A stretch of 62,832 nucleotides of DNA, filler included, from Bonamia ostreae (taxonomy: Eukaryota): assembly GCA_040357525.1 (NCBI GenBank). It is 43 parts of 43 records of this genome, joined end to end, with 100 filler letters (N's around TTAATTAATTAA, not from the genome) between each part and the next. Parts side by side here need not be neighbours in the genome. Positions count along the whole stretch, not along the records: positions 1 to 1,377 come from JBDODL010001933.1; positions 1,478 to 2,853 come from JBDODL010001934.1; positions 2,954 to 4,329 come from JBDODL010001935.1; positions 4,430 to 5,805 come from JBDODL010001936.1; positions 5,906 to 7,280 come from JBDODL010001937.1; positions 7,381 to 8,754 come from JBDODL010001938.1; positions 8,855 to 10,226 come from JBDODL010001939.1; positions 10,327 to 11,697 come from JBDODL010001940.1; 35 more parts are not named here. One strand, written 5' to 3'. Numbering within the stretch: the stretch's first letter is position 1; every line of letters starts with the position of its first letter. Shown here one piece after another: positions 517 through 52,500 of this stretch. The notes below the pieces were generated by a model. That model searched no databases. It was not told where the DNA came from and saw only the letters and a list, made by a program, of their open reading frames with translations. The translations under genes and the position numbers were made by a program.

Positions 517-1300
517 ATGACAAATTTTGTGACATTGGACAAATTTCCAAACAGTACAATTGGCTCTGTAGACGACGAATCTGATTTGTACTGGAAAAAA
601 TTCAATGTTTTTTTTTCTAATTACTTTAACAAAAAGACGGCATTTTCTTTGAAAAGGGATGAACAAATTAATAACTTGGAATTTGTAAACAGCAAAAACG
701 ATTCTACATTAGTCGTATCAGCGGGTTGCGACGTCATTTTGCGAAAAGATGGAATTTTAGACAAAGAACTTTTAATTTCAAAGTTGAACTTTAAAATGCA
801 AAATTGGCTTAATTATAAAGATTTACGAGAGAAATTAGGACATCGACTCTTAGAAAAGATTCAAAGTTGTTGGCGGCTTCAGGGGATGAGCAAAACGTCA
901 AATTAATCGATCCTCAAAACAAACAATTATTGAGAAAATTAGAAGGACATTCGTTTATATTTTTAAATTTACAAAAATTCTGTTTAAATTTTTTTATCGA
1001 ATTACAAAAATTCTGTTTAAAAATCGCATAAACAATTTCAATTAGCGACATCGTAAAGAAAATATCATTTGACTCGGAAAGTTTGACAAATATTGCATCT
1101 TTTTCAAACGACGGCAATTTTTGGTTTTGGGACATTCCGAGAAACAAAAAAATCGTGAAGATAAAAGCTCACGAAAACGGAATTTCTGACGGTTTCCAAT
1201 GTTACGAAAACAAGCACAATTGGTTCACTGCCGGAAAAAGCGATTCTCTGATCCGCGGATGGGATTTGAGAGCGCCCGAAAATTTTATTTCTTTTAAAAC
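517..1300 (+). CDS. UTP15: UTP15-like WD40 SSU processome subunit (partial); introns 607-636 (in-frame, probable), 783-820, 953-1045
   Basis: Spliced translation gives DLYWKKF...STLRKDSKLLAASGDEQNVKLID...LLRKLEGHSDIV...WFWDIP...IRGWDLR, matching the UTP15 N-terminus and WD repeats. Confidence 0.8.
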
Positions 1301-1747
1301 ATTTTTCAAAATTCAAGTTTTGCCAATTTATTTTATTCAAACTTTCCAAAATTTCCTTTTTATGGACAATTTTATAANNNNNNNNNNNNNNNNNNNNNNN
1401 NNNNNNNNNNNNNNNNNNNNNTTAATTAATTAANNNNNNNNNNNNNNNNNNNNNNNNNNNNNNNNNNNNNNNNNNNNGATAAATTAAAAAGAAGAATCAA
1501 TTGACCAAAAGTTAACAGACTGAAAAGGGCATAAAAATAATAAAATTATTTCCAAAGAAAAATGATAAGAAATAAAATTAACGGAATTTTAAATCTACAA
1601 AAATGCTTCAAAAATTTTCCAATACTAGAAAATATTCGTTTTTAACACAAAATTAGAAAATATTGCGGTTTTTAAATCATTTTAAAAGAAATAGATTTTG
1701 CACAAAATTAAAACATTAAATAAACAATAAAATACAACAAATATTTA

Positions 1748-2394
1748 TTACAAAAGCGACAAGAGGTTGTAAATTCTTGTTTTTCTCAAACGGGACAAAA
1801 TTTGAAATAGCCCAGAAGAAATTGACACCAAAATGAAAAGCAATGCCAGAAATTTGGTCGCGAATATTTTAGCGAAAGGGATTAAAATGCCATTGAAGAA
1901 TAGAGCCGCTAAAATGCGCGTCGCAACAAACAGAATAAAATGAGCCGAAAACAGCTTTGCGTCTGTTTCCGACAATCTTTCATTTTCTTCCACAAATAAT
2001 CGAGCGCAGAGACTTGGAATTTGCGGTAACTCATACAACAACAGAAAGGTCAACAAAAGCAAGCCGTCTAAACCGGACGCCGCGGAACACAAAAGAACGA
2101 CCGAAACTGTAACTCGCAACAATAAGTATCCAATCGTTAGATTTGTGGGCAAAAAACTTTTCCACCATTTTCTTATAATAAAAATTGCCTGGAAAGCGGA
2201 CAGAACGCAAGTTGACATTAGCAACGATTTTAAAACGAGAGATTGTTTTGGGGGAGAATCGAACCACTTTTCCAACACGGAAAATTTCCACGGTTTGTCC
2301 GGGAGATGAGAAAACAAAACGAAAAATCCTGTTAACAAGAAAACGATCGAATAAGAAAAATGGAAAATCGTTTCGTTTCGAGATATATTTATGT
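1748..2394 (-). CDS. Multi-pass membrane protein, possibly TLC (TRAM/LAG1/CLN8) domain; 5' exon(s) unresolved
   Basis: About 200 aa hydrophobic ORF with a YELPQIP..R...F..HF..F...RI pattern reminiscent of TLC proteins. Confidence 0.45.
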
Positions 2395-2953
2395 CTATTT
2401 AATTTATCGTATTTAGACAAAAAATGAAGTGTTTTCTCAACAAAATATCAAATGTCTAACTTGTTGAGTATCTCCGATGAATGCGTTTTTTAAGTTTTAA
2501 AATGGAACTGTTTTGCGATTTAAATGTCATTTGAAAAATGACAGTGGTTTTAAAGTTTTCGTTAGCAATGTTTTTATCTCGTCAAAATTATAACATTGTT
2601 TGATAAAATTTTTCGATTATAATAAAGTGATTTAGCTTTCATAACGTCGTCTTTGTTAGACGAAAAACTGATAATCGCGAACATAAAATTTACAAAAAGG
2701 CTAAAAACTGATAATTACGATTTTAAGACATATTTAATGAAATATATTTTCCAATTCCTTCAACTCAATGAACGAAACTACAAAGTAAAAACATCAGTAA
2801 TTTGTAGAACATGAGATTTAACGATACAATTTCAATTTTCAATATGCTAAAAANNNNNNNNNNNNNNNNNNNNNNNNNNNNNNNNNNNNNNNNNNNNTTA
2901 ATTAATTAANNNNNNNNNNNNNNNNNNNNNNNNNNNNNNNNNNNNNNNNNNNN

Positions 2954-4290
2954 TACCCAAAAGCATGTGAGCCCTTTATTTTCTGACATTTTTAATTGTC
3001 TCAAATGAGATTTGCGCTTCCAATTGCAACTTCAAAGTCGTACTCAATTTGAGGAGTACAGTGGTTATTAAGGATTGTGCTTTTTTGTTATTTTGTCATC
3101 AAATTTTATTGCTATTTTTCTTCAAAATTTTTTTACTTTTTTTAGACTTTATTTTTAGCTGCATTTTAATCAAAAATTTTGATAATACAACTTTCAGGAA
3201 CTAAGTGTATTGAAGCAATTATAGGTTTGTGATCTGAATTAATTTTTCCAAAGTCGATCTTTTATTAATCACGATATTTTCATTGTGAAGTTAGATCCAC
3301 TTTAGACTCCGTTTTCTGGTGTCGGTGAGAGTTATAATTGATTTTGTTATTTTTAGGAAATATTGTACATTTTTAGCTCTTTTTTTTCTACGAAATTCTT
3401 TGCTGTTTGAATTTTGTATAATTTTGGGGTGTTGATAAAGTCGCCCAGTAAACAAAGATTGCTTGACTGCAAGATGTCTAAATATGTTAGATCTTCGCCG
3501 GAATAAATCGGCGAATGTAGATGTAAACAAAAAGGGTTGTGTAATTTCCCAATATTTGAACTTCTAACAGTTCAGTTTTTTCTATTGTTGGTCTTTTCCA
3601 GTTTTTGTAATTAATGTAGTCTCTGTTGAAAATTGCGACTCCTCCACCTCTTTTGTCATTCTGAGAATTGAAAATTCCAATATTCTTAAATTCTCTTGCA
3701 AAAATAGGATGTCCACATTATTATTTTTTATTGATTTTTCAGATATCTATTGTTTACGTTCATCTAATTTATCATTTAAGCTTCTTGTTTTTAAATTCAA
3801 AATTTTATATCCAAATATTTCTGTTTTTAATAAATTATTAGTATTTTTAAAATAATTTTTCCTTATTAATTATTTATTTTCCGTATGCATAAATTTACAT
3901 AATTTTCATTTTTATATAAAATTTATTATTCGAATAGACATAATTTTTAAATTAAATGAATATTTTAGATAACTGTAAGATTTTCATTTAATATACATTC
4001 ACCTTTATATTTGAATTTCTGAACCTTATTTTATTTTCAGTTTAACTTCGTCAAAACTTTATGAAAACAATTTTTCAGATATGTATTTTATCATTTTGTT
4101 GATAACTTTGTTTGTCGTTTTGACCACTTTTTTAATCTGCACTGTGACTTTCGAAACACAGTTTATACATTTTATCTTCTTTTTTTCCGCTTCTTGGAAA
4201 TATCGAATAATCCTTTAAACAAAGATTTGTATAATGAAATCGGAAGCACTTTACACATTGAATTTTTAAATATGACTTCCATTTTTCAAT
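2954..4290 (-). mobile_element. Decayed non-LTR retrotransposon (LINE): ORF1 zinc knuckle plus ORF2 APE endonuclease
   Basis: Minus strand gives KIQCVKCFRFHYTNLC (~4200-4270), then KTRSLNDKLDE, DILFLQE, RGGGVAI, LLGDF and SDHKPI motifs (3190-3810), interrupted by stops and frameshifts. Confidence 0.8.
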
Positions 4291-4589
4291 TTTATTGTAT
4301 TAATAACCAATTTGCAATTTTTAATGTAANNNNNNNNNNNNNNNNNNNNNNNNNNNNNNNNNNNNNNNNNNNNTTAATTAATTAANNNNNNNNNNNNNNN
4401 NNNNNNNNNNNNNNNNNNNNNNNNNNNNNTTTCCTCAACCTCTTTTCACGGGATTGGATTCGGTTATTCGAAGATACTTAATCAAATTGTTCTTTTTTAT
4501 TTTTATTATTCTTTTTTAGTGTTCATTTTTCCCTTTTTTTAGTTAAATAAAATTTAATCATATTTCTCCTGAAAATAATGTTATTTTTT

Positions 4590-5730
4590 AAACATTTTTT
4601 GTTTTCCTTACCTAAGCTCCATTTAGGATGATGAGAATTAAAGTCTCTCATTATTAAAGTGTTCAGAAGACATAAATTTTCGATTAATTTTAAATTTTTT
4701 CATCGACAAATTGATGAACGTAAATATTAGTTATATGAATGTCTTTTTTTATTTTTAATTGTTAAAGTGTATTCAATACCATTTTTTAAATCATAAATAT
4801 TTACATTTTTAATTTTTATTCCATTTTTAATAAAAAAGCAACCTAAACAAAATTTTCTGCAATAAAAATTATTTTCAACAAAAAAGAAGCCTACAATATC
4901 ATTAAATAAAACATTTTCGATGAAAATACAATTATTAAAATGGAAAAAGAATTTTATATTGCCATTCCGAACTTATACATGAACACTCCCCAAGATTTAA
5001 TCAAAGAAGCATTAGAAATGTCTTTAAAAAACGCAAAAAAAATTTAATTTTGAACTCAAAAATAAACTTAAAAGATTATTAAATTTTATTTTTTTATTTA
5101 AATACATTTTTTTAATTTTATTTGGTTTNNNNNNNNNNTAAAAAAATAAAAAAAATTTAATTTACAACAAAAAAATAAACTTAAAATATACTTCTAAAGA
5201 AAGAAGCACTTTAAAAGTATACTTTAACAATGAAAATTCAAAAAACGAATCCTTATAACGTAAAAAGATACAAATTGGCTACAAATTTTACAAAATTAAA
5301 AAATAGTCTTCAAAATTAAAAATACAACACAGAAAATGCATTCTCTTTCATCATACAAATTTGTGTTTCAAAAATTATTAAATTTTATTTTTTTATTTAA
5401 ATACATTTTTTTAATTTTATTTGGTTTTTGTTTTATTTCTTTTATTGTCATTTTTAATTTCATTTCTAAGTCTGAAGGTTATTGTGTGGTGGTTTATTTG
5501 GATTTAATAATGTTTCCAGACTTAAATTTGTCTGTTTTACAAAGGGCATTTTATATCGTCAGATTTATGCTTTCCAAAGCAGTTTAAGTATTTCAATTTA
5601 AAACAGAAGTTGTTGTCAAACATTTTTTCTCAACATTTTGGACAATAAATAACAGACTTTCTCAGAGTCTCGTATAATGAAGTTTACAACATCGATTGCA
5701 TTGTATTTTATATATCGTTTCCGAATTTTT
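4590..5730 (-). mobile_element. Second decayed copy of the same LINE family (ORF1 knuckles plus endonuclease remnant)
   Basis: KIQCNRCCKLHYTRL*, YCPKC and LNCFGKHKSDDIKCP (5535-5720); LIMRDFNSHHPKWS, a GDFNAHHxxW-like motif, at ~4600-4665. Confidence 0.7.
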
Positions 5731-6035
5731 CAATCTATAATTTTTAAACCCAATTTCGTTATTTCTTGATGTTTCACCAAAAGGAATGTGCTTCTTTTTA
5801 ACAAANNNNNNNNNNNNNNNNNNNNNNNNNNNNNNNNNNNNNNNNNNNNTTAATTAATTAANNNNNNNNNNNNNNNNNNNNNNNNNNNNNNNNNNNNNNN
5901 NNNNNTTCTAGATAAGATTAAAGTTGCCATAATTTTTCCTTAATTGACTAAAACAGACAAACAGAAATATAACATTAGGAACATCCGATATTGTAGATTA
6001 CTTAGAGCTTTAAAATATTGCATTTTGCTCTTCAA

Positions 6036-7280
6036 ATGAAAAAATTGTATTTTAAAATTGATAGAAAGCAATCTGGTGTCGTTGGTCTCATTCCCGAAAA
6101 CAAAGAAGATATATGGCATCTTTATAATCTTATTTCTATCGGAGATAAAATACAAGCTTTTACTGATAGAAAAGTTGTTAGCACCGCAAAAACTAATCCA
6201 TCGACATTTGTTTTTAGAATTTAATTTCAAAATTGATATTAATGATCTGAAAATCACACTATTTTTCGAATTTTCAAATTTTGATTTTAAAATAAAAAGA
6301 GAGTGCGAATTCGCCTAAAAATACAAATAGAGTCGATTAACGTCGATTTGGACGCGTGTTCGCTAAGACTTTCCGGAAGAAACAAGACTTTAAGCCCTCA
6401 CATCCAATTAGAGCAATATCACACGATCACTTTGCAGTTGAACCAAAAATTCGAAATAGACAAAGAACATTGGGACGTTTTGTCCAAAAATCGTCTTAAA
6501 ATGGCTTTAAACAACAGCGCCAATGCCGAACTTGCTGTTATCTTAATGGACAATGTTAAATTTGTAAAACAATTAAAAAGGGCTCCGCAAATTTATATTT
6601 GATAGCGCCAAATTTGACTTTACACAAAGCAACCGTAAATGTTGCTATTCCGAAAAAGAGAAACTATTCGGCGAAAAAACATTCTGCCGTTTTTAATTTG
6701 ATTTTAAGGCGATCACAAAATTTTACGATAAAATATTGATAGCGATCAAAGCAAATGTAGATTTTGTGGTAGTAAAATGTCTCGTTGTTGCATCTCCGGG
6801 ATTTTATAAAGTTTCAAAAATTCAAATTTTTAAAGGACGATTTTAAAAAATGGCTTAAGGAGAATTTGAAAAAAGTGAGCATTAAAGAAATTGCAGAAAA
6901 TTTTGACAAGTTCGTTTTTTGCCATTCTTCTTCGTCGTATAAGTTTACAAATTGCAAAATTTAGAGATGGACTAGAAAGCTTACTCAACAGCAAAGAAGT
7001 CCAAGATTCGATCAAAAATACAAAATTTTTCGAGGAATCCAAAATATTTGATGACTTTTTAAGGATTTTGGCAAAACATCCCGATAAAGCTGTTTACGGT
7101 TTTAAAAACGTTCGAAAAGCTGTTTCTCGTAAAGCTGTGCGGGATTTGCTTGTTACGGACGATTTTATTAGGGGATCGGATGTAACAATGAGGAAACAAA
7201 TCGCTGCTATTTCCAACAATACACAAAAACAACGTGGGAAAGTTCATGTTTTGTCTAGTCTTAGTTCGCCAGGAGAACGT
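6036..7280 (+). CDS. PELO: Pelota/Dom34 ribosome-rescue factor (3' partial); introns 6210-6299, 6555-6580, 6689-6708, 6811-6835, 6943-6964
   Basis: Removing five GT-AG introns gives a continuous pelota: PENKEDIWHLYNLI..GD...TDRKV...LRLSGRN...QYHT...IPKKR...KCLVVASPGFYKDDF...AVYG...VHVLSS. Confidence 0.96.
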
Positions 7281-7572
7281 NNNNNNNNNNNNNNNNNNNN
7301 NNNNNNNNNNNNNNNNNNNNNNNNTTAATTAATTAANNNNNNNNNNNNNNNNNNNNNNNNNNNNNNNNNNNNNNNNNNNNCTACCATTAGAATTTCATCA
7401 CACCAGCTAGGGTAGTGAATGAAGGTAAAACACGAGTACGCAATTCCCGAGAAGAACATTACAATGAAATTTTACTATACATATTCCTATGTGAAAAGAT
7501 GTACATGTGAATATTTCGGGGGAGAGTGTTTTATTAATGAGACTGAGCTATATTTGTTTTTTTTTTAAAGAA

Positions 7573-7748
7573 GGTAACCACTCTGGACTGACAATATCAG
7601 TTGGAGATAACAGTGGGCGCAAGTGCTACAGCGGTTTGTTCCCTGAAAATACAGGGACTATATTCTGCAACAGAGTATTAAAAACGAAAATATTGAACAT
7701 AACATTTGATTTGGAAATTGAAGTCCAAGAAGTGGAGGTTTATGGAGG
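7573..7748 (+). CDS. Host exon, possible fucolectin/galactose-binding-like domain fragment
   Basis: Exon-like stretch ending EVQEVEVYG followed by a canonical gtaag donor. Confidence 0.4.
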
Positions 7749-10210: not shown

Positions 10211-10637
10211 TTTTGTAACAATTATTNNNNNNNNNNNNNNNNNNNNNNNNNNNNNNNNNNNNNNNNNNNNTTAATTAATTAANNNNNNNNNNNNNNNNNN
10301 NNNNNNNNNNNNNNNNNNNNNNNNNNTAAAAGTTCTTTAGAATGGCTGAGTAATGTTGTATATTGAAGTCAGTTGTTTTGTTAAAATGTTAATGAAGATA
10401 CTATTCCATTCCAATAAATTTGTTCTCGTTGTATATTTCTTGTCACCCGTACTCACTTGTGAGATAGTGGATTGAGCAAACGTAAATGCTGATGGGCGCC
10501 TTTTGGTTTCACAAACTGTGTCTTACGTTTTCTGATATTAAGAATTTGAATTATTTTCAGATTATCTCCCTATGTATTGCTATATGATTTGCTGCATTGG
10601 TCTTTTAACCAGATGACAATACTGCAGTATGCCTTAC

Positions 10638-11960: not shown

Positions 11961-12540
11961 ATTACTAAAAAAGATTCCTGAAAAAGGAAAAGCAGTCTTA
12001 AAACACATGGCCGTTTTTCTAACAAATTTGGCACAAAACGAAAAAATCACCAAAATGGACTTGTCAAATCTCGCCATCGTCTTTACACCTACTCTCACTC
12101 GAATTGAGACGACAAAGGATATTTCCAAAATGATGTTAATCAACGACCATCTCCAAACGTTTTCTCCCTCTTTACAAAAAAATCTATTTTTTCAAAATTT
12201 GAAAAAATCTATTTTTCATCTTAACAAAATTTGGAAATTAAAAACATTGTCCAAAACCATTTTTTAATATTCAAAAAAAAATAGTTTTGTTGTATATTTA
12301 TTGCTATATTACGAGAACCAAAAATCTGAATTAGCAGTCCCTCCTCCGATCCCCAAAAAAGGAATGAGAAGACTAATATCGGTGTTAAAAAGCGAAGACG
12401 AAAGCGCACAGGAAGACATGACAATAGAAGATTTTATTGTTAGTGGGAAAATGGATGAAAGTCTGAGAAAGATGGAGGTTAGTGCAGATGAAAATGACGA
12501 GTTGTGTCATTTGGAAGAAGACAACACAGAATTATCATAA
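11960..12540 (+). CDS. RhoGAP domain protein, C-terminal part; intron 12159-12284
   Basis: IPEKGKAVLKHMAVFLTNLAQNEKITKMDLSNLAIVFTPTL is the RhoGAP KM..SNLAIVF.PTL signature. Confidence 0.85.
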
Positions 12541-13323: not shown

Positions 13324-14638
13324 TTATAATGAATTTAAAAGTTTCCATCTTCGCCATATTTGGTTATCCGTTCTTCCTTCCATTTCTTTAGCGATCACAG
13401 ACCATTTTCCGGTCCCAAATCTTTTAACGAGTCGATTCAGTTTGTTATCTTCGAAAACGGTCCACCGACTTTTGTTTATCCTGTTGTCCAAGACATTGCA
13501 ATAACGCTCTCTGCACCTTTTTATTCGAAGGAAAAAACTTCATATCGGTTCTTTTCGGCACATGTTTCACGACATCTTTCCAATTGCCGTCCCCGTAAAT
13601 CCGTTTCGCCAATATTATTCTTATGTCTTCTTCCAAAGCGAAATTGCCTTTGTTGATGTTTGGATTAGTCGTTTTCTTCCATCTGTTCATGCACTGAAAT
13701 TCATTTTTCGATTCAATCAATTTTGCGACTTTAATAATTTTCAAAACTTTTGCACCAATTATTGCAACCAAAATGACAGACAAGTCTTTTTAACGCTTCG
13801 TTTTCCTGAGCAGTCCATTTATTTTCACTTCTTTTCTCTGTTTTGGAGATTCTGAGAAACCGTTTGAGGCAATCTATTGCCGTTCTTCCGTTGTTCTTTA
13901 ATATTTTTTTAATTTTGGAGAACCATTTTTTCCGCGACATTTTTAAAAATTTTGCAGTTTTTTGTTATTTCGATCAATCTGAGATCGTCTTTTTTGGTCC
14001 ATTTGGATTTGTTTATTAACGGACTGTCTATGTTGCGCCATTGTAATTCGCATTCCATTCCTGTGCGGTTTTCCAGCTATCAATATTTTAAAAACGTAAA
14101 TTTTTGCTAATCTCTCCCAATCAACGATATTTGTATCGGCAACGAATTCGTCTTCGTTTATTTGCTTAATCAACTCGATTGTGTTCTTAAATTCCGACCA
14201 AGATTTTTCAGTTTTGCCTGTTTTCTCGAGTCTGAAATGTTGTAGATGAAAATATTTTAAACTTTTGTTTTGCCTTTGTGATGAAATGTTGTCGTTTTAA
14301 GTTCAAAATCCCGTTAAAAATCTGCTGCCTTTCAATTTCAGAAACTTGTTGTTAGAATAAAAACATGGTGTAGCTGCTTGAACATGGCCAATTTTGTTTT
14401 TGAATTTTCCAACCAGTTTCTCTTCGTTGCTGCCGGGAGGTTCCTTAAAATATGAAGTAGCAAACGTTATTAAAATCATCGACGAAGAATGGCAGTTTGA
14501 AAGCGAATTTTTTTCTGTAATAGTCCTTTCGAATCGATATCGAAGATTTTTGGTTTTTCGTTTTATCCTAATCAATTAAAATATCAACGTTTTTCTGTTC
14601 GGATTTTCTGATAAGCTGGTCAATATAATTTATCCTTT
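13324..14638 (-). CDS. SNAPC4: SNAPC4/SNAP190-like multi-Myb protein (5' partial); introns 14077-14095, 13896-13923, 13729-13747, 13517-13538
   Basis: Spliced: DWERLAK...[20 protein letters not shown]...RTAIDCL...QCMNRW...PNINKG...RTDMKCRERY...[25 protein letters not shown], i.e. 4.5 Myb repeats, with an upstream [11 protein letters not shown]. Confidence 0.75.
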
Positions 14639-17412: not shown

Positions 17413-19667
17413 ATTAAAATTTTTTCATTTTCTGATTTTAAAATTATTAAAATGGTTCGTTTTTTAAAAAATAATATCGTTTTTTTTTTAACGGCTGGAC
17501 AAAAGCAATGTTCGTTTTTTTCTGTCATTTGCTGTTTGATAAATCTATTTGAAAAAATGAGAAATAAAATATTCAGTANNNNNNNNNNNNNNNNNNNNNN
17601 NNNNNNNNNNNNNNNNNNNNNNTTAATTAATTAANNNNNNNNNNNNNNNNNNNNNNNNNNNNNNNNNNNNNNNNNNNNAGAACAAGCCTATAGCAAAACA
17701 AATCACCAGTACACTCTAGTATCCATTGATCCTTCTACATCAAGCAAAATAAAATATGTCTTCAATTAGAATAGTAAACAGAGAAGGTACTCTCTTCCCA
17801 GGGAATTTTAATTCATGGGGAAATTAAACTAATGAACAGTGATCTATCCCCGGAATTTTAATCGAAAATAAAGGCGTTGCATTCAATTGAAAGATAAAGA
17901 ATGTTGAAATTCAAGTCTTTTTGTCCCTCAGATATGCATAAATGAAATGGAATTCGACTTTTTTTTACAATGTCATTAAGGTTTCGAATGCTTGTTGTCC
18001 AATCTTTAATGACATCGTGAAGAAAGCAAACGTATTTGCCTTTTAACCAAAGTGTGAAAACAATTTCTTTATTGGCAACACTTAGTATTATTAAATATTG
18101 TTCGATCACATCGAATATTTCGCGCGTTAGCATGAAATAGATTAAACATATGATTCAATCTTGACTGAGTAGTTCTGCCAAAAAGAGTCTAAAAAGTCAC
18201 ACGAAATGCTGGCTCTAGCACCTAAATCGTAAATGAATTTGAAATAAATCTGCCAACTTTGTTTTCAATGGTTACTTGCAATCTATGTTGAAGTCATTTG
18301 AACGTAACATGATTCAGATTAGAGATTTAACACTTACAGACGTGGTAAAGTAACTATGAACGGAGCGATATTTAAGTGCAAAATTGGTAGCTCCCCTCTA
18401 TAAAAAGTTATCTCTACAAACAAAATTTATGCTAACAAAGTAAAGCACTGTAATGGTCACCCGAGTTATATAAAGTTGAAAAAGGACTCTTCACAAGGTA
18501 GGTGTCTATTATTGAGACGACATTAAGAGCATTTCACTACCTGAGATATCCCCATTATAGCATCGCATGATCGTACATGTATTAGCCACGTCACCCAATA
18601 TTTCAAAGCCCTTGCAATTAATATCGTCATTACATTGAAATATAAAGGATTAATATAATTTAAGTATGAACAAATGCAATTGAAAAATGACAGAGGATGA
18701 TAAAAATGACTAGTATCGTCAATCTTTGACAACAATTGCCGAACACCGTTAAATTTAAATGTTGTTGTTGTTTTTTTTTTTACAAATACAGATTGTTTAT
18801 AATAGCGAGTGTGTACCTTCCTTCTGCATGATTCGCAGAAATATATATTTCTTTTCACCCGCTGTGAGACGTTTCTTTCGACGGCTTGATATAGAAATAT
18901 CAGCGAATGATCCTCATACTATGTGTGCGCCAAGTCGATGTTCGTAGATGAGTGACATTTAAATCAAAATCTATGTTCACTGTAGGGACGAGTCAATGTT
19001 CCCAATTGATATCTAACTTACTGTACCGCATGCGATATGGCAAATNNNNNNNNNNNNNNNNNNNNNNNNNNNNNNNNNNNNNNNNNNNNTTAATTAATTA
19101 ANNNNNNNNNNNNNNNNNNNNNNNNNNNNNNNNNNNNNNNNNNNNATTTTTTTTAACTTTTTTACGTTGTTTTGGGAACATTTCAACTTTTTCAAAGCTG
19201 CTATTTCTACTGATTTGTTTTCGAAGTTTATTACGTAGTTTTGTCTCTATTTTAATTTTTTTCGTTCCACCATTAATTTTTGAAACGTTTCCGTTTTTAT
19301 CGGAACAAAAGTTTATGTTTTTTTTACTAGACATATTTTTGTTGGAAATGTTCTTTAATACTTTTTAGATAAATTTTTGAAAATTTTTAAATGTTGTCAA
19401 AAAATTTTATAAACGTTTGTCGTTTGTTTTATTGCAAAACTCAATAAAATTAAAGGTTTTTTAAAAGACTATTATAATGCCTTTTATCCAACTTTTTCCA
19501 AATAAAAAAGTAACAGTTGATTTGATTTTACTTAAAGAAAAATAAATTTTAAGGTCATAAAAAGGGGGAATTAATGTTTATTAATAATGCTGTTTAATCA
19601 ATTTTTATAATTTTTATTTTAAATATTAAAAATTTTGATATTTGATATCCGATTTATTGCGATCACT

Positions 19668-20252
19668 TCAAAATTGACACATGTTCCTTCCAAGCAAATG
19701 ATTGATTCCCCAATGTACCGGAACCGAAATTTTGTTCTTCAACGAAAACTGTTTCGACAAATAAACGGAATTCCTTTTTCGCAAATTTATTTAAAAAACC
19801 AGAAAAGCCATCCTGAAATTCCCGAAAAACTGCCATATTTTGTGTCAACAAGTGCGTCCTTTCCACCAATATAGGCCATTGTTCCTTTGTGAACATATTT
19901 GAACGGCTCAAAATCTTTTCTATTCTTCATTTTGTTCATCTCTTTGCATAACCAATAAGCTCTAAATTTTATGTTTGTTAAAAAATCAACTGTTGTTGAG
20001 CGACTTGAGCGGTCGGCGGAAGCGGAGAATTCGGATTGACTAATTTAAATAAATGACGAGTCAGTTAAAAAAAACAGGCGCAATCGCCGAGAGCGAAAAT
20101 GTTGGTGTAAGATTTTCCGTCTTTGCTCATAACGTCTAAATTTTAAAGGATTAACTGTTTTTGTCGTTGATCATAAGACTTTTATTTCGCTCGTTTTTCT
20201 TAAAATCGAGTTTTTCGATAAAAGGAATCATTTTATTCCCAGTGCTCCAAAC
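19668..20252 (-). CDS. Type II (alternative) NADH:quinone oxidoreductase, C-terminal part; introns 20136-20155, 20040-20075, 19962-19990, 19774-19799
   Basis: Not recovered by the ORF track. Spliced: VWSTGN..PF...NIFALGDCA...LPPTAQVAQQQ...PFKYVHKGTMAYIGG...GWLFWNSVYLSKQFSLKNK...W...LGRN. Confidence 0.92.
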
Positions 20253-20993
20253 CTAATTTTATAATTTTCGCCATTACGAAAAACTTTTACCGCAAAATTT
20301 TTCGTGTTAAATTATTTGCGTCTAAAAACTTACAACAAACTTTGTACAACATTTGAAAACACAATTTTTACTTAACGCCATTTTTCCAAAACACAATTTT
20401 TATCAAAACTGCAAAAAGACAATAATATCGGAACTCACTAAATCGTTACAAAAAGATAATCCGAAGAATAGAAAAGCTGTTAAAGATGGTGATAATGTTT
20501 AACAACAAAATANNNNNNNNNNNNNNNNNNNNNNNNNNNNNNNNNNNNNNNNNNNNTTAATTAATTAANNNNNNNNNNNNNNNNNNNNNNNNNNNNNNNN
20601 NNNNNNNNNNNNAATTCCAGTTTCGATATCTGTTCTTGAAAAGTTTTAAAATTTTTAGTTAATTATTTTTCCAAAAAAGCGATTTGCTGATAATCGATTC
20701 CGACAAAAAAGAAGAAAAGTGCGCAAAAACATTATTAAATTTTGTCTTTAAAAATGGAAAAAAATTTAAGTTAAGTGGATTTTTTGTCGGAGGACAATCA
20801 ATACAAAAATCGATTTTAGACGAAGCAAAATTGTTTGCACTTAAAACGGCTCAAAATCATAAATAAATTCATCAATTTTTAATGTCTTCAACTTTTTATT
20901 TTCCATCAAATTAATTTTTGGCTAATTACAAATAACAGAAATTTTGCATATAATTAAAATTGACACGTAAACAAAAGTTTAGACATTGACAAA

Positions 20994-21970
20994 ATGGACT
21001 CCAACGCTAAACCTTTTTTGTTTTATGGCTACGATTTGTCAAAATGGAAAAAATCGTCCATTTTGTTGTTTCTGGCAATCGCTCACATAACTTGCGCTAT
21101 AATGTTCGGTCTTCTCCAAGAAAGAGTTTTTATTCTTTTGAATCGACATTTTTAATAAAAGCTTTTAAAAATTATATCGAATTAGTTTAAAACAGTTGAT
21201 AAAGCGTTCAAAACATTTAATCCAAAATGACGCTATTATTTACTCATTTTTTTACTTATATTTTTTAAACATTTAATCCGAAATAACAATATTTTACACA
21301 CCATTTTAAAGCTTTAAAATTATTTATATGAAATCCGTTTAAACTATTCCACGAAAGTTTCAAAAATTGTACAAACGCTTTCGTTATTTATATTGCCAAT
21401 TTATCAATATTGTAATTTGACGTATCAACATATTTATCAATATTGCTAAATTTAAATTTAGCAAAACTTAAAAGGTGTTTAGAATTCCAGGCTTCAAATT
21501 CGGGGGCTACATGACTATTGTCACAAGCGCTACTTATGTTGTTTGTGGAGCTTTAGAAATGTGGTTATCCGGACAATTTAAATTTAGCGGGGGATTGCTA
21601 AATTATGGGATTTTAGCATTGACCACATTTTCGGGAATGTACTTCACTAATTGGTCACTGGAATTCATTTCGTTTCCGGCGCGGATTATTTTCAAGTCGA
21701 GCAAAGTTTTGTTTTTGACAAAATCAAAATTGCAAAATTTTAACAAAAAAGCTAATTCCAGTTATGCTCGTTTCTTCGATTTTGGGGAAAAAGTTGACAA
21801 CAAAAGAATTTTTAAATAATTGTGCGCTTGTCTTCGGACTTGTTTTATTTGTTCTCGGCGATTCGAAATCTTATTCAAAAGAGTCTTCGCTTTTCGGGAT
21901 TTTTTTAATTTCGATTGGCATTTTCTCGGATGCGGTAACTTGTAATGTCGAAGAACATATTTTTCTAAAA
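20994..21970 (+). CDS. UAA-family nucleotide-sugar/PAPS transporter (SLC35B-like), partial; introns 21126-21474, 21706-21751
   Basis: FGLLQE..F...GF...YMT...TNWSLEFISFPARIIFKSSKLIPVM...SDAV..NVEE. Confidence 0.85.
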
Positions 21971-24425: not shown

Positions 24426-24439
24426 TGTAAAATTATTGG

Positions 24440-24830
24440 CAATTTTTATTTTTATTATCGATTTTATATTTTTTTGACCAGTTTTGAACTATTTTTTATT
24501 ATCGATTTTCAATTTTTTTGATCAATTTTAAACTATGTTTTATCCATTTTTTTATTTTTTGCCAAATTTGTATTTTTTGACCAGTTTTGAAGTAGTTTTT
24601 TTATCGATTTTAAATTTTTTTTGAACAATTTTGAACTATTTTTTTTTTATCGATTTTCAATTTTTTGACCAATTTTAAACTATTTTTTTTATCGATTTTC
24701 AATTTTTTTGACCAATTTTAAACTATTTTTTATCCATTTTATTATTTTTTGGCCAAATTTATATTTTTGACCAATTTTGAACTATTTTTTTATATCGATT
24801 TTGGATATTTGACAATCTATTTTTTGATTG
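24440..24830. repeat. Degenerate ~41-42-nt tandem array with ~10-nt-phased T-tracts
   Basis: Repeated TTATCGATTTTCAATTTTTTGACCAATTTTAAACTATTTT units downstream of the PI4K stop. Confidence 0.88.
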
Positions 24831-45514: not shown

Positions 45515-45542
45515 CAGACAGGTGATCAGGTGAGCTAAAAAT
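45515..45542. mobile_element. Helentron/HINE-type terminus (CAGGTGAGCTAAAA) in a host intron
   Basis: Terminal motif recognised from bivalve non-autonomous Helentrons. Confidence 0.5.
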
Positions 45543-45616
45543 ATACTTTATAGAATTTACAAACCAAATTTTTTCAATTAACCTTAATTTGTTGCAAACA
45601 AGTTTATCAAACATAC

Positions 45617-46805
45617 CTGAACAAAGGGCTGGTATGCCAACTGATTGGACTTTCAGGTCTTCAGATAATACAAGAGCATTAAACACAACCGTCTTTAAAA
45701 CATTTGCAGCACCTCCATATTCTCTTGCTTTGCTCCAGTATGGCACATGTGCATGGATGACATGCTTGTAATTCAGATTTCCAGCAGTTGTATTACAGCA
45801 ACACCCTTCCGGGAGTCGTTTATATTCTCTGATATAGCTATAACAAGCCCGAGTTAATTCCTGTCCACCTGCCTCAGCGATAACCTTCGAAATTCCTCTT
45901 GTGTTTCCTAGATTTGCATTTGTTGAGCTTACTACACACTGTACATTTAACTTTGTGATGTCACCTTTGTAAACCTTAACAGTTAACCCTTCATTTGTTG
46001 TGAATGTAATTTCGTCAACATTTGGAGCATTGCTTTTTACTGTCCTTTTTCTGTCTTCCATAATTTTCTTCTGTTTCTCAGTAACTGAACGTTCTGCATC
46101 ATCAACAGCTTGCTGTGACATCCCAAACAATTCTATTTCCTTCTTTCTCTCATTAAACAAACTAAACACTGGTGGATTGCTTTGAATAAAAGACTGACAT
46201 TCCGATTTCATCATTTTATATACATCTTCAGTGCTTTGTATTTTCTTTACAGTCATCTCAGTAAGTATTTCATCTTTTTCACTTGTAACTTTTTGTATAA
46301 AAGACTTGCTTCCTGATACTTGCATACAGCTATACTCATATGTTATGGATCCATCACGTATACCTTCGGAAAATTGATACACAACCATAAATTTTTGATA
46401 GTCATCCTCTGTTATTTGGATAGCAGTAGATTCTTGCGTTGCAATTCCTCTGTGTTCAGTTTGGTCTTCCGAGCAAGTCTTTCCATTTTTCTTGTTTACT
46501 TTGCTGGCAAAAGAACTAGATTTCACAGAGGTCTGCAAACTTGTCAAATCCTTTGCATGGACAGATTTAGGTACTTCAGCCTTTTTTTCCAAGTAATTTG
46601 CTTCTTTTAAGGACAAATAACTGTCTCTTAAGCACGTGTGAGCCAGTTCAATTTGTGGTAAACTTCCAGTTAAAATCCACTTCTTTTCTTCTGAGACCCT
46701 TATATTTACTCCACTGCTTTTAATAATTCTATCCTTGACATTATCCAGATTGACAAAGTTCTTCAGAAACTTGTAGGATACTTGTGCTTGTACATTACAT
46801 ACAGC
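45617..46805 (-). CDS. Host PARP14-like macro-domain protein exon
   Basis: VKVYKGDITKLNVQCVVSSTNANL...GISKVIAEAGG...TTAGNL..KHVIHA.VP...SVGIPALCSG; tttctag acceptor and gtatg donor. Confidence 0.85.
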
Positions 46806-46939
46806 CTAGAAATAAAAAGTCATCACTNNNNNNNNNNNNNNNNNNNNNNNNNNNNNNNNNNNNNNNNNNNNTTAATTAATTAANNNNNNNNNNNNNNNNN
46901 NNNNNNNNNNNNNNNNNNNNNNNNNNNCGACAAAACCAT

Positions 46940-48200
46940 TTTTGACATTAGAAACAACTCCATTTAAAGCCCTAACGCGCTGGACAAGCGGTTGGTGTTC
47001 ACGCGCGAAAACGAAAGTCTCGCCCATTTTGTTCAAAGAGAGCTCCTTTTCCGTCAGCGTCGGCAAAATCGGCGCAATCGTCCGGAGCAATCTCATCTCG
47101 TCCACGAAGGGCAGAAGCGCGACCGCTTGCCACAAAAAGCGTTTTCCGTTTAAGTCGAAATCGACACTCGTCGGATAAAAGTCGGCCACATCGCTGCTCG
47201 GATCCGTCATCAGACCCGCCAGTTTCCTCGGCAGACAGTGGCTCGACCCCGGCGGCATCACGCCCAACAGTTGCGCGAACGGGTCCAACGGCTTTCCGAT
47301 CGAAAAGCTGTTGTCCCAGTTTTTGACGCGCGCGAGGTCGGAAGCGAAGGGCGCGTAATGGAATGGATAGAACCAGCCCCAACTCGGGCACCCTTTGAAG
47401 TAGTAGTTCAGAACCCATTGCAATCCCCTCAAATAAGACGACAGCAGTTCGGCGAGCTGCGGGGGCGGGTTGGTCAAACTGAACTTTTTGTCGAATCTGC
47501 AACCGAACTTGGTGGAATAATATCGTTCTTTCCAGCCGTTTCGGCCCAGTTCGACATTGTCTTGTTTTGCCGAGTTTTTGTCGCTTTGAAGATTTTTTAG
47601 ATCTTCTTCCACATCTTGTAAAGTCGGGTCTTTTTTTATTGCCAAATTTTTGGCTTGTTTTTCATTGTTTTCGAACAAATTTTTATATTTTTCGGTTGTC
47701 AAATTTTTCTTTTTATTTTTGGTGGTCAAATTTTTCTTGTTATTTTTTTCGGTTGTCAAATTTTTCTTTTTATTTTCGGTTGTCAAATTTTTCTTGTTAT
47801 TTTTGGTGGTCAAATTTTTCTTATTTTTTGAGGCTAATTTTTTTAATTTTAAAAAATTTTACAATTCAAAATGGAATTGATTTTTTCTGTCAATTTGTCT
47901 TTGATCATTTGAATCAAATTTTTTTTGACAATTTCTTTTTTCGACGATTTTACCGATTTTTCGTTGTCAGTATTATTAAGAATTTTGTCCAAATTGATTT
48001 CGGTTATTCCACCGCTTTCGATTTCGCCGAATTTGACTGATTTTGATTTTTTGTTTTTCTGTTTGGATTTAATTGATTCGATTTCTTCCAGAACTTGGCG
48101 ACGAGTCTGTGTTTGTAACATTTGGTTCGCTTTTTTCTGGTTTGTTTCTCTGGGCGGTTTGCCGGAAGTGAACATTTTTTCGGTTTGTTTTTTATGTTTT
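46940..48200 (-). CDS. XRN2: 5'-3' exoribonuclease XRN2/Rat1, internal fragment; repeat-filled intron 47630-47862
   Basis: GWKERYY..KF...YLRGLQWVLNYY..GCPSWGWFYPFHYAPFASD...P..QLLGVMP...DFYP...DLNGKRFLWQAVALLPFVDE. Confidence 0.92.
47675..47830. repeat. Intronic tandem repeat (~27-30-nt AAAAATTTGACMACCRAAAA units)
   Basis: About 5 copies; produces the spurious KNLTT peptide repeat in the ORF track. Confidence 0.88.
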
Positions 48201-48607
48201 TCTTGATTTTTGAAATATTTTTTTTCCTTTTTTTGAGAATGTTTTATATTTTTGACAAAATTTTTTGAAACGATTTTCTTATTTNNNNNNNNNNNNNNNN
48301 NNNNNNNNNNNNNNNNNNNNNNNNNNNNTTAATTAATTAANNNNNNNNNNNNNNNNNNNNNNNNNNNNNNNNNNNNNNNNNNNNACCATCGCGGCGGTTC
48401 AATGAAATGTGTTAGTAACAATATTGAAAATGGGTTTTTATGTCTTGTAGTAAATTTACAAGGATTTCCTCTATACTTATGTCTACAAAACACCATCTGG
48501 AAAAAAGAAGAATGAAAACTAATGTTAGGGTATCCATTTTATATACGCTGTGTAGGGAATTCATTTTAATGTTCATCACAGTTCACTGATTTTCAGGTGA
48601 GGCAAAC

Positions 48608-49165
48608 CAATGAGAAAAACCAGTAACATTTTTTCATGACACTGCACGTCCTATCTTTTAACATTTTATTTATGCATTTACGCCAGTTTTGATGTACGTA
48701 AAATTTTCCGAAGATTTCTGCAATTCCAATAGCATGAATATCTTACCCGATGTTTGTCATATCTTAGGTGTTGGAATGAAAATAAATTTGGTTCCATTTC
48801 ATGTTTGGATTTCAGAGAATTCGTTTTAATGATCATCACTGTTCCCTGACGTTTAGGTAAGAGGCCCCTTCTATGCCCATGAATCCCTACCATGACAATG
48901 ACTCACACTTGAATTGGACGTATTTGTATTGAAATCTCCTATATTGAGATGTTATCAAGTATGAGAAAAAACGGTAACATTTTGTTTTTCATGCCACTGC
49001 ACGTCCTATCTTTAACCAATTTATTTGTGTATTTACGCCAGTTCTGATGTAGGTAAACTTTTCCAAAAAATTCAGCAATTTGCATTCAATAGCATGAATA
49101 TCTTACCCGATGTTCATCATATCTTAGATGTTGAAATGAAAACAAGCTTGGTTCCATTACATGTT
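48608..49165. repeat. Diverged direct duplication of about 200 nt (48608-48810 and 48960-49165), host
   Basis: Shared CACTGCACGTCCTATCTTT...GCATGAATATCTTACCCGATGTT...GGTTCCATT blocks. Confidence 0.85.
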
Positions 49166-51296
49166 TTCTTCTACCGGGATATTTAGGTTCTGCAGATGCA
49201 TTATCTCCACTTCCGGTTGATCTATGGTTCGGTTTTGACACTAGTAGACAATATCATAAACATACACAACATGACGCAAAACTGCCTTTCATTTTATACA
49301 AGATAGGTTTAAAAGGGTTGATCATATAAAACACGTGTAGCATGATTCAGATGAATTGCAGAATCTAAAGATATTAAGGTACCAATTCAATTCATGTAGC
49401 TGCACTCAACGAGTACCCTCAAATGTAATAAACATGAGTAACACATACCCTTGGAGTCTGCACAATCCTCTTCAATCTATTATAAATGATGTAAAATGTT
49501 AAATGCATTATTAATGCAGAAGTTATGTTTATCCTTTTCCTTAAAAATTCATCTTCTCTAGCCACGGTTTTTCTCTATTCACTCGTGATTAATCTAGTAG
49601 CTTTTAAAAGAACATGTCCTAGGATTCAAGGCATCCAATAAAATCATGTCTTACAAATATGGCGTCAGCAACTATAGCAGCCCCATTGTTGAGTTGTCAT
49701 GCACGTTGTATCAAGTAGATATTAACGGCAAACTAATCACNNNNNNNNNNNNNNNNNNNNNNNNNNNNNNNNNNNNNNNNNNNNTTAATTAATTAANNNN
49801 NNNNNNNNNNNNNNNNNNNNNNNNNNNNNNNNNNNNNNNNGATAAGCAAGGGACTACTGAGTACCTATTCTAACCCGAAGCCTCACAGGACGAATGTTAA
49901 GTAATAAATGACATATTTCCGTCATAATAGAACATTTCATTCATCAATTTTGTCACATTCCAATGACTTAATGCACATATCATATTCATATTTTGGCTAC
50001 GCTTGGACACGTCGTAGTTTAAGTGACTACAATATACTAGTAATCGACATAAGAGAATATATTACAGAGCAGTTATCATATTTCAGAGAAAACATACCAT
50101 TCTGTCTGCATGTACATGAACTGTTTTCACTTCAGAAGTACGCCACACAAGTTGTAAGATCCTTTGGTGTCACAACCACAAAATATGTTGAAGGCTACAC
50201 CAAACTAATTTCAAAAAGTATTTTCATAAACTATTTTCATGTGACGCCATTTTGAACCATTGACATATCTAGGTCAACTATATCACGTGTATAAGTGGCA
50301 CATATCATATCAAGTTTCGACGCTCTATAAATCTGGATGCTTTTCAGTACGTGTATTTAAATTTTGTAGAAGTAGATTAAACAGGAGAGACAGACATAAC
50401 AATGCTGAATATCAATGTGATAAATTTAAATGCTGACAATCTACACTCCTTTAGTATTGTACTCTACAAAAGATATGACTAATACTTTACCTTGAACATC
50501 CTTCAAGCAAGACTAAATTTTTAAAAGAAAGAACAGTAGAAACAAACAATTTTGTAAAGAAAACAAAAACACGAAGAAAACACACAAGTTGAAATTGATT
50601 GATTTGAAGTAGAAATTTCCATATACGTTTCTTAAAGAGTCGTCAACATTAGCTTCAAGAATATTCATTTGTCATACCTTAAATCTGTGTAAATTTTTTT
50701 TAAATTAAAAAATAATATATAATTCACATTCCAACGAACAATCTTGATCCTGAGTTTTACCACTTATAATCAAAAAGATTAATGAGGACATATTTATTAT
50801 ACTTTTTTGATAGATATCTAAACCGTTGCTGTCACAGTTAACTGTATGGATGGATCCATATACTTATGGAATAGCTTAAGGGACATTACAAAGTAATCTT
50901 GGCTTGTTTGTACGTGTTATTAGGAGGTCACCAGCTGTAGGTGAAATGTAACAAAGATTGGCGGTCAAGGCCGTAGCAGGGATAATTCTTTTTTATAACA
51001 ATATCATGTAATATGTTATGGTATTATTTAGCATACTGTGGGATTAAAGAATAACATTTCATTCTGGAAAGAGCTTCAAAGTCTCCATTTTATAAAAGAG
51101 GAGAAATACGGATGAATATATATTTATTTATATGATTATTACAGATTTTTAAAAATTCGTTTAACAGATTTATTTACAAGTTGTACAATGGCTCCANNNN
51201 NNNNNNNNNNNNNNNNNNNNNNNNNNNNNNNNNNNNNNNNTTAATTAATTAANNNNNNNNNNNNNNNNNNNNNNNNNNNNNNNNNNNNNNNNNNNN

Positions 51297-52500
51297 GAAG
51301 AATTAGATTTCCACACAGATTTAAATTCGTTGCTGGAACCAAAATTGGAAATGATGTGTGATCTCAAGCAATACATCGATACGTCCACTGATTTTGTCGC
51401 AGAACAAATTCCTCTTATTTTCAACGGAACCGATTGGCAACCTTCATTGATCAAAGAAGGCATGATTTTTCTTGTCGATGTTTTGATGAAAGCGAGTATC
51501 GTCATCGGAAACAATACGTCACTTTCGAATGATTTCACTCGTCTCAAAAGGTTTCGTTGTCAAAATTTAACTTTTGAATCTAAAAACTTCCGTTATCAAA
51601 ATTTTCTTTTTATCGCAAACATTTGATTTTTCAAATTTAGAGAAAATCAAATTTTCGTTGACAAATTTGGAGGTAAAAATTTGGTCGCGCAAATTAATTC
51701 GCTGCAAGGATTTTTTAGTTCCGCTAATTACATAATGGAACATTTGCGCGACAAAATTCAGTCCAAACAAACTCACGTTTCAGCCATTACAAAAATGGCA
51801 ATTTGCGCTCTCGATCTTATCGATTCGAACAAGTTCTTTCATCCAGAAGAGCAAACCGCGCTTATTAGATTCGCCATCGTTCAAAATTTTTGTTCGGATT
51901 AAAATTACAATAAACAAAAATCGATAAATTGACGAACTTTAAAGCTTTTGCCAAATTTATCCCAAAACTTAAATAAAGCATTCCGTTTATTTGACGAACA
52001 GCGCCAGTTACAACGTGTTCAAAGTGAAGAAGAAGTTTGTCGGGAGAATAAAGGGCGTTGTCCAGAAAAACAGTTTTGTGCCGATTTTGAACGACATTAA
52101 TTTGTCTGCCAAAGAGCTCATTTGGAGCAACGCACAATCTTTTGGCGAGAAAAATTATGATTGGATCGACAATTCCCCGGGTTTAATATCAGATTAAAAT
52201 TGCGCCATTTTAAACTGCTAAAAACTGTAAATTGATATTAAACGAAAAGAGCTGTTTTCGTTGGTTCCTGGAATCGAAGTAATAAAGAGGGCATTGCGAA
52301 ATTACTTTATGTCTTTATTGCCTTATATGGCTTTGAAAAGCGGTTCGATCGAAAAAATGAACAGCCAAAATCAAAACGAATATTTTGATTTTGCGAAAGA
52401 GGTGATCGAACTGATTTCGAGAGGATTCGTTATGCTCTCGGCTATTCAAAACCGAATTAAAAAACAGTTTTGTTACAAACTTGAAAATCGGATCAGTGAA
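51297..52500 (+). CDS. CYFIP: CYFIP/Sra-1/PIR121 WAVE-complex subunit, internal fragment; introns 51551-51640, 51879-51978, 52181-52249
   Basis: LLEPKL...SLSNDFTRLKR...L..F....N.I...L...FFHPEEQ..L...VPILNDI...W...CYKL is colinear with CYFIP1/2. Confidence 0.8.

Follow-up and report, generated by a model that had tools for sequence, protein, structure and literature searches.

Introns of Bonamia ostreae with a probable minimal, A-rich 3′ signal, frequent AAG acceptors, and GTT donors

Bonamia ostreae is a haplosporidian (Haplosporida, Ascetosporea, Rhizaria) that parasitizes flat oysters. We analyzed the introns in a window of its nuclear DNA, a stretch of 62,832 nucleotides (nt) built from 43 records of the GenBank assembly GCA_040357525.1, and compiled a set of 50 introns, 19 to 145 nt long and about 80% A+T. 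These are real spliceosomal introns, yet they dispense with several of the sequences by which introns are usually recognized. On balance, we favor the view that their 3′ signal is minimal: an A-rich block within the last ~8 nt followed by NAG, in which N is any base except G, with neither a polypyrimidine tract nor a recognizable yUnAy/CTRAY branch motif. AAG, the most frequent acceptor, would then be a passive outcome, and spacing, or the choice of the first AG, would set the site.

RNA-derived contigs of one sequencing run, X1, span introns in the window directly. A joint from 51548 to 51639, cut at +2 with GT..AG ends, gives an intron at 51551–51640 (+, 90 nt, GTTTCG..AAATTTAG, TAG acceptor), and a joint from 52179 to 52249, cut at +1 with GT..AG ends and a shorter side of 201 letters, gives one at 52181–52249 (+, 69 nt, GTTTAA..ACGAAAAG, AAG), the last intron listed in a first-pass annotation of this DNA. 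A third, at 51879–51978 (+, 100 nt, GTTCAA..AAATAAAG, AAG), is supported by a contig whose loose end after 51878, CATTCCGTTTAT, equals 51979–51990, and by another contig that begins at 51979. The depth of the spliced contigs is 85–269, vs. 41–50 for unspliced contigs over 51521–51668 and 51861–52008 (+); the latter reflect either intron retention, pre-mRNA, or contaminating DNA. Two further runs of mollusc metagenome RNA, X2 and X3, gave no match in 51297–52652. All RNA runs sharing sequence words with the window are mollusc metagenomes, which is consistent with an oyster parasite. One X1 contig, spliced at the upstream introns, departs from the window after 52501 (region 52490–52510, +), where there is no GT, and its continuation is absent from the window at up to two mismatches. 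A non-canonical junction, an exon concealed by the N mask, or a chimeric contig could each account for this departure.

Protein family profiles scanned exon by exon run continuously across several junctions. The Pelota gene, read by hand, has five introns of 90, 26, 20, 25, and 22 nt, all on the plus strand. Intron 1 (6210–6299, GTTTTT..ATAAAAAG, AAG) separates eRF1_1 profile positions 1–50 from 54–123, and the same splice occurs in the NCBI ‘hypothetical protein MHBO_003444 [Bonamia ostreae]’, with 100% identity over the exon at 6300–6554. Intron 2 (6555–6580, GTTAAA..TTAAAAAG, AAG) is likewise spliced in the NCBI protein. Intron 3 (6689–6708, GTTTTT..ATTTTAAG, AAG) brings a frame change that joins ..KKHSA to AITKFY..; intron 4 occupies 6811–6835 (GTTTCA..TTTTAAAG, AAG); and intron 5 (6943–6964, GTTTAC..AAATTTAG, TAG) is followed by an exon matching eRF1_3. 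Similarly, in the origin recognition complex gene ORC2 (+), a 22-nt intron (35348–35369, ..ATAAACAG, CAG) is spliced identically in the NCBI ‘Origin recognition complex subunit 2, variant 2 [Bonamia ostreae]’, to which an ORC2 exon is 100% identical. A 109-nt intron (35789–35897, ..TCAAAAAG, AAG) lies between ORC2 profile positions 51–177 and 182–244, and the exon after a 27-nt intron (36144–36170, ..TTGAAAAG, AAG) matches the ORC2 WHD profile from position 4 onward. In the AAA protease gene (−), Pfam AAA positions 1–14 and 16–63 flank a 21-nt intron (29704–29724, GTTCAA..AAATTTAG, TAG), and in the Myb gene (−), the profile continues from position 20 to position 25 across 19 nt (13729–13747, GTTTTG..TATTAAAG, AAG).

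The remaining introns were obtained with a Viterbi gene finder of our own, which combines codon log-odds with GT..AG introns of 15–160 nt and an intron term, and was run in nine settings. GT..AG pairs linking open frames, with or without a codon score, showed no excess over control dinucleotide pairs in the window; therefore, open frames alone cannot find these introns. A version that scored codons only and penalized introns heavily failed to find most of them and was rejected; once an A+T term was added, all five Pelota introns read by hand were recovered. Since other weightings lost the longer RNA-confirmed introns, the union of the nine settings was used. An intron was kept if it appeared in five or more of the nine settings, measured 18 nt or longer, and lay between open frames of no fewer than 20 codons; one RNA-confirmed intron missed by the finder was added to reach 50. 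A strict subset comprises the 34 introns in genes with a family match or RNA support, and a best-supported subset the 12 backed by RNA, NCBI annotation, Pfam continuity, or the hand reading of Pelota. The finder scores A and T equally, so that A versus T at any position is unbiased. It carries no acceptor weighting except a GAG penalty in six of the nine settings, and the same six give a GTT bonus. Half of the introns (25/50) are 31 nt or shorter, with a minimum of 19, and the other 25 measure 35–145 nt, a distribution in which the finder may miss or favor some lengths. It is blind to introns that contain no stop and have a length divisible by three, such as the first candidate of the first-pass annotation (607–636, +, 30 nt, GTTTTT..ACAAAAAG, AAG), which it reads as coding.

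At position −3, the set has A in 26 introns, T in 17, C in 6, and G in 1, close to the AAG 26, TAG 17, and CAG 3 of 46 from which the first-pass annotation had named AAG the commonest acceptor; its three example acceptors are correct as well (ATTAAAAAG ending at 6580, TTTTAAAG at 6835, and AACAAAAAAG at 21751). AAG leads more clearly in the better-supported introns, with AAG 20, TAG 12, and CAG 2 in the strict subset (A 6, T 5, C 4, and G 1 in the other 16) and AAG 9 and TAG 3 in the best-supported subset. Nevertheless, AAG is not actively preferred, and composition accounts for its excess. The intron interior has A, T, and C at 0.404, 0.400, and 0.122, from which the A/T/C counts at −3, with G excluded, do not differ (chi-square p = 0.40), and AAG is also the most frequent NAG in the window as a whole (AAG 2137, TAG 1072, CAG 1102, GAG 916). 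AAG is thus commonest mainly because −3 has no preference other than ‘not G’ and sits within an A-rich block. The unusual part is the missing pyrimidine preference at −3.

Upstream of the AG, the claim that an A-rich stretch replaces the polypyrimidine tract holds in the enlarged set. The pyrimidine share at −15 to −4 is 303/600 (0.51), vs. ~0.52 in the interior, while A at −7 to −3 reaches 131/250 (0.52) vs. 0.404 (p = 1.4e-4). A run of at least three A's falls within the last 8 nt of 33 of the 50 introns, compared to 14.2 ± 3.0 in shuffles, and none of 1000 shuffles reaches 33. This block stays beside the AG at any length, in 17/25 of the short introns and 16/25 of the long ones. The last window of the long introns contains AAA in 16 of 25, vs. 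0.374 of interior windows (p = 0.011), and TTT in 4 of 25, vs. 0.319. The A run directly adjoins the AG in AAG introns, and TAG introns follow the pattern AAA-W-TT-AG, with A at −6 in 15 of 17 and at −7 in 12 of 17. CAAAA is also enriched in introns (17/50 vs. 4.7 in shuffles).

Branch motifs are inconspicuous. CTRAY occurs in 4 of the 50 introns, vs. 5.2 in shuffles, in agreement with the first-pass annotation, which saw no such consensus; YTNAY (30/50 vs. 30.5) and YTRAY are not enriched either, ACTAAC is found in none of the 50, and TAAC in 4, vs. 9.1 in shuffles. No U12-type donor (ATATCC/GTATCC) is present among the 50 introns, in which TAAC, part of the U12 branch site TCCTTAAC, is not enriched. 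An A at 8–10 nt from the 3′ end of the shortest introns had also been reported; it is there in 13 of the 14 introns no longer than 23 nt, although not beyond chance (shuffles give 10.3 ± 1.6, and 8.4% reach 13). AG is scarce inside introns, with 30 observed vs. 68.9 ± 6.1 expected and 32 of the 50 introns lacking an internal AG, and within the last 15 interior nt it occurs in 6 of 50 introns vs. 16.0 ± 2.7.

The GTT donor is a stronger oddity than the AAG acceptor. Position +3 is T in 43, A in 6, and C in 1 of the 50 introns, and +4 is T in 31. Without donor weighting, T at +3 still accounts for 37/48, and all 12 best-supported introns begin with GTT, a trinucleotide that accounts for 40% of GTN occurrences window-wide. 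On the exon side, the last base is G in only 9 of 50, A stands at exon −3 and −2 in 29 of 50 each, and the base after the acceptor junction is a purine in 36 of 50. The GTRAGT donor consensus with a preceding exon G is not seen in the 50 introns. We know of no lineage with GTT as donor consensus, and these donors suggest a diverged U1 5′ end or a different mode of 5′ site recognition. The two intron ends may be linked, a decidedly improbable idea in our estimation: U at +3 and A at −3 would stand where a purine and a pyrimidine, respectively, are usual, through co-evolution of the two intron ends in the catalytic core or a changed specificity of the U1 5′ end, U6, or the Prp8 pocket, and AAN|GUUU...AAAG would be the sequence that the spliceosome reads natively, with no consensus recognition of the U1 or U2AF type. 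The window has no power for this comparison (A 24 and T 14 at −3 of GTT introns, A 2 and T 3 of GTA introns; Fisher p = 0.37). If the ends were linked, nature would have provided, in Haplosporida, a test of how −3 is read by the active site of the second step.

A minimal 3′ signal suggests a simple mechanism. The branch adenosine would lie in or just upstream of the A block, ~4–9 nt from the junction in short introns, the second step would take the first AG downstream of the branch, and spacing, rather than a tract read by U2AF, would define the 3′ site. An A block beside the AG at every length, together with scarce AG, fits the choice of the first AG shortly past the branch region, and such scanning at short branch-to-AG distances is an established behavior of the spliceosome. 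The first-pass suggestion that distance sets the 3′ site therefore stands in part, given that the tract and the pyrimidine at −3, the features normally read by U2AF65 and U2AF35, are missing, and given the scarcity of AG and the A block; against it, the AG deficit is partly strand-symmetric and the position of the branch region is itself an inference. Such a mechanism need not involve lost factors, since myxozoans with similar 3′ ends retain U2AF1, U2AF2, and a normal U2 branch-binding region (PMC13644364); a lost tract thus need not mean lost factors.

Several points weigh against this interpretation. The intron set rests largely on our own gene finder, which made two intron predictions in the RNA-tested stretch, one of them wrong (51592–51642, with GAG, vs. 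the true 51551–51640), and missed those at 52181–52249 and 21706–21751. It also penalizes C and G within introns, in three of nine settings including −3, and mildly disfavors C-rich tracts. The RNA comparison covers a single 1356-nt stretch (51297–52652) and 3 of the ~50 introns, and the run behind it, X1, is labeled RNA only as a guess and also contains unspliced contigs. The A enrichment is modest at each position (0.50–0.58 vs. 0.40), and A and T runs are in excess along the whole intron (AAAA 33/50 vs. 19.2 and TTTT 29/50 vs. 16.3 in shuffles). CT (72 vs. 108.5), AC (80 vs. 111), and GT are depleted as well as AG; because CT is the complement of AG, the AG deficit is to some extent a strand-symmetric bias and not selection by splicing. 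Finally, a branch 4–9 nt away would be closer to the junction than in the majority of systems studied.

Composition could, in principle, explain much of this pattern, and we regard that account as possible though doubtful. U2AF1, U2AF2, and SF1 would bind a U-rich intron in the canonical way, a degenerate branch site would lie further upstream, and the A block and the A at −3 would be neutral by-products of A/T richness and homopolymer runs. It is consistent with a −3 position indistinguishable from interior composition, with AAG as the commonest NAG window-wide (2137), with A and T runs enriched everywhere in introns, and with the depletion of CT and AC alongside AG and GT. Likewise, myxozoans with the same type of 3′ end retain U2AF1 and U2AF2 (PMC13644364), and passages of PMC11069148 term the introns of B. 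ostreae “canonical”. However, composition does not foresee that the A run is positioned by the AG in long introns (16/25 vs. 0.374, p = 0.011) while TTT is lower there (4/25 vs. 0.319), nor A at −6 in 15 of 17 TAG introns, far above 0.40. The lost pyrimidine preference at −3 would also still need explaining. In other eukaryotes, A/T-rich ones included, −3 is mostly a pyrimidine. A more radical account, the stronger form of the first-pass interpretation, holds that U2AF and/or SF1 have been lost or re-specified, or that another factor reads the A-rich element instead of a tract. The missing tract, the absence of a pyrimidine at −3, and the positioned A block would all follow. The spliceosome of the related mikrocytids, as given in passages of PMC10245619, has 17–19 proteins and only U2, U4, and U6 among the small nuclear RNAs (snRNAs) found, and in part of the supplement of PMC11069148, ‘mRNA splicing, via spliceosome’ is enriched among the gene-cluster losses of B. 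ostreae (9/328, false discovery rate (FDR) 0.006). Yet in that same part, which deals in orthogroups and not genes, ‘U2AF complex’ is given for the paramyxid ancestor only and not for B. ostreae, and the window encodes an ordinary-looking Prp19; we consider this account improbable.

Two other explanations bear on the junctions and on the intron ends, and both are extremely improbable. Gene modeling might have misplaced acceptors that are in truth YAG, as the finder did by 2 nt when it chose GAG for TAG, and a few junctions are NAGNAG or otherwise ambiguous. However, the RNA joints and the RNA-supported intron give AAG, AAG, and TAG, Pfam continuity and NCBI models match the junctions, the independent first-pass list shows equal proportions, and the strict subset is richer in AAG than the rest (20/34 vs. 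6/16). Many introns resemble GTTTT...AAAAG, so the U run after GU could pair with the A run before AG and bring the two ends of the intron together. Between the first 9 and the last 9 nt, the longest stem averages 3.94 in real introns, vs. 3.97 ± 0.13 when ends are swapped (63% of permutations reach the real value), and T-run and A-run lengths are uncorrelated (rho 0.17, p = 0.22). End pairing was rejected, as stems are no longer than in swapped-end pairs. A minimal, A-rich 3′ signal with the site set by spacing remains the reading we favor.

How do these introns compare to known ones? Like canonical U2-type introns, they have GT..AG ends (required by the search and found independently at both RNA joints), are removed from RNA with the reading frame preserved, and are followed by a purine in 36/50; unlike them, they carry T at +3, a last exon G in only 9/50, and A at −3 in half, with no tract and no yUnAy enrichment. 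In Giardia and Trichomonas, a long, strongly conserved motif fuses the branch and the 3′ site, and a short, fixed branch-AG spacing replaces the tract; B. ostreae differs in that ACTAAC occurs in 0/50 and only the A run is conserved. The introns of Stentor and of the Bigelowiella nucleomorph are minimal and A/T-rich, with no room for a tract and a branch A a few nt from the 3′ end. They fall into narrow length classes with GTA-type donors and mostly TAG acceptors, unlike those of B. ostreae. Their lengths, as cited in passages of PMC10245619, are 15–16 nt in heterotrich ciliates (Stentor) and 18–21 nt in the Bigelowiella nucleomorph. The same passages describe 224 introns of 16–17 nt with a highly conserved sequence and a reduced spliceosome in the mikrocytids Mikrocytos mackini and Paramikrocytos canceri (Ascetosporea). 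As far as that description goes, B. ostreae belongs to the same parasite class and has very short introns too, but these are degenerate and range over 19–145 nt, in contrast with the few, fixed, conserved introns of mikrocytids.

The closest likeness lies further away. In 2026, PMC13644364 described 3′ ends built in much the same way in myxobolid myxozoans and Dicyema japonicum, which have ultra-short introns (median ~22–27 nt) with a 3′ end reduced to AG, two or three weakly conserved upstream A's taken as the branch point, and a missing or very short tract. As in these lineages, the 3′ signal of B. ostreae is cut down to AG and a weakly conserved upstream A without a tract. The differences are that B. 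ostreae is a rhizarian protist and not an animal; that its donor is GTT (T at +3 in 43/50) and not the ‘GTa’ of PMC13644364; that its A block stays in place in 16/25 long introns, whereas the A's of myxobolids and Dicyema shift away from the AG as introns lengthen; and that AAG, its majority acceptor, does not appear in that role in the main text of PMC13644364. In our literature searches for Bonamia or haplosporidian splice signals, no description was found. Among minimal, tract-less introns, those of B. ostreae are new in combining broad lengths (19–145 nt), an A block fixed by the AG, and GTT donors.

The other introns are as follows. On the plus strand, a WD40 gene has introns of 38 nt (783–820, GTTGAA..TTATAAAG, AAG; the next exon matches WD40 families) and 93 nt (953–1045, GTTTAT..TCAATTAG, TAG), the latter found in 9/9 settings, as is the 126-nt intron of a RhoGAP gene (12159–12284, GTTTTC..AAAAATAG, TAG), whose upstream exon matches RhoGAP 116–147. 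Two more plus-strand introns are 37 nt (20643–20679, ..CAAAAAAG, AAG; 9/9 settings) and 145 nt long (20833–20977, ..AACAAAAG, AAG; a single candidate). The first-pass example in a sugar-transporter-like gene (21706–21751, 46 nt, ..AACAAAAAAG, AAG) lies outside the core set, and its removal joins ..KSSK to LIPVML... Introns in the Snf7 gene (32865–32893, 29 nt, ..TTATAAAG, AAG) and the Sybindin gene (40914–40944, 31 nt, ..AAATGAAG, AAG) come from the gene finder combined with the exon Pfam scan.

On the minus strand, a search for an annotated protein matching a Myb exon returned none. Apart from the intron described above, the Myb gene has introns at 13517–13538 (22 nt, ..ATAAAAAG, AAG, with an in-frame CAG 6 nt downstream as the alternative), 13896–13923 (28 nt, ..TATTAAAG, AAG) and 14077–14095 (19 nt, ..ATTGATAG, TAG), both in 9/9 settings, 14232–14262 (31 nt, ..CATTTCAG, CAG, a single candidate), and 14345–14364 (20 nt, GTTTTTATTCTAACAACAAG, AAG), which is among the few with CTAAC. 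The gene finder adds 14444–14465 (22 nt, ..ATTTTAAG, AAG) and 14568–14588 (21 nt, ..TTGATTAG, TAG), as well as two introns in the NDH2 gene (19247–19286, 40 nt, ..TAAAATAG, TAG; 20136–20155, 20 nt, ..AAATTTAG, TAG). Found in all nine settings are two further introns of the AAA protease gene (29528–29557, 30 nt, ..AAATTTAG, TAG; 29834–29881, 48 nt, GTAAAA..AAAAATAG, TAG), one in the mitochondrial L19 gene (40312–40333, 22 nt, ..TCGAAAAG, AAG), and one in the Xrn gene (47834–47862, 29 nt, GTAAAA..AAAATTAG, TAG) between open frames of 155 and 319 codons. The 22-nt intron of a PLAC8 gene (39277–39298, ..TTTAGAAG) ends in NAGNAG and is ambiguous between TAG and AAG. At 24489–24723 (−), two near-identical intron-like units (GTTTAAAATTG.TCAAAAAAATTGAAAATCGATAA..AATAG) ~190 nt apart look like copies of one tandem repeat rather than independent introns.

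The window has a G+C content of ~32% (non-N bases), is interrupted by paired 44-N blocks about every 1470 nt, and uses the standard genetic code. Given the 100% matches to B. ostreae proteins, its source is this species or one that sequence does not set apart from it; a dicyemid or a myxozoan, suggested by the tiny introns and the mollusc RNA runs, was dropped on this ground, as was a ciliate (genetic code table 6). Its coding content includes Xrn, Prp19, ORC2, a Macro-domain protein, Pelota, an AAA protease, Snf7, mitochondrial L19, Sybindin, NDH2, and Myb. No gene for U2AF1, U2AF2, or SF1 lies in the window, and scans of it with Rfam and tRNA models gave no match, hence no snRNA gene to inspect. 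The upstream part of the Xrn gene encodes a low-complexity repeat (47900–48280, −; ..KKNLTT.NKKKNLTTEK..). Two long intron-free open reading frames (ORFs) without a Pfam match stand amid intron-rich neighbors, at 55612–57063 (−) and 61533–62591 (+); one encodes 484 amino acids (aa) rich in Ser/Thr/Asn/Gly, and the other 353 aa rich in Lys/Arg with an internal duplication (..FFCNT.KE...FR..). Long stretches at 48600–49300 (+) and about 52750–55560 have no convincing coding frames; ORF-like pieces (..MNILPDV.HIL.V.MK..) recur around 48.7 and 49.1 kb. An ORF at ~3.3–4.0 kb (−) is, by appearance alone, a candidate transposon remnant.

Such introns also bear on the public gene models. Our set and the NCBI models have three introns in common (Pelota introns 1 and 2 and ORC2 intron 1). 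The NCBI Pelota model translates the 20-nt intron 3 (6689–6708) as coding and ends prematurely, and the ORC2 ‘variant 2’ model uses an internal AAG within the 109-nt intron (35789–35897) and then meets a stop. Passages of PMC11069148 report ~2 introns per mRNA in B. ostreae, vs. the five found here in Pelota alone. The public annotation of B. ostreae probably misses many tiny introns, and standard gene predictors mis-annotate this oyster pathogen. Therefore, gene catalogues of Ascetosporea, and the gene losses inferred from them, may be biased.

Few splice signals are as widely conserved as a pyrimidine at −3, a pyrimidine tract, and a purine at +3. Here, a lineage that has lost all three still splices numerous introns of 19–145 nt, which shows how little sequence a spliceosome needs, and makes Bonamia a system for testing distance-based choice of the 3′ splice site.

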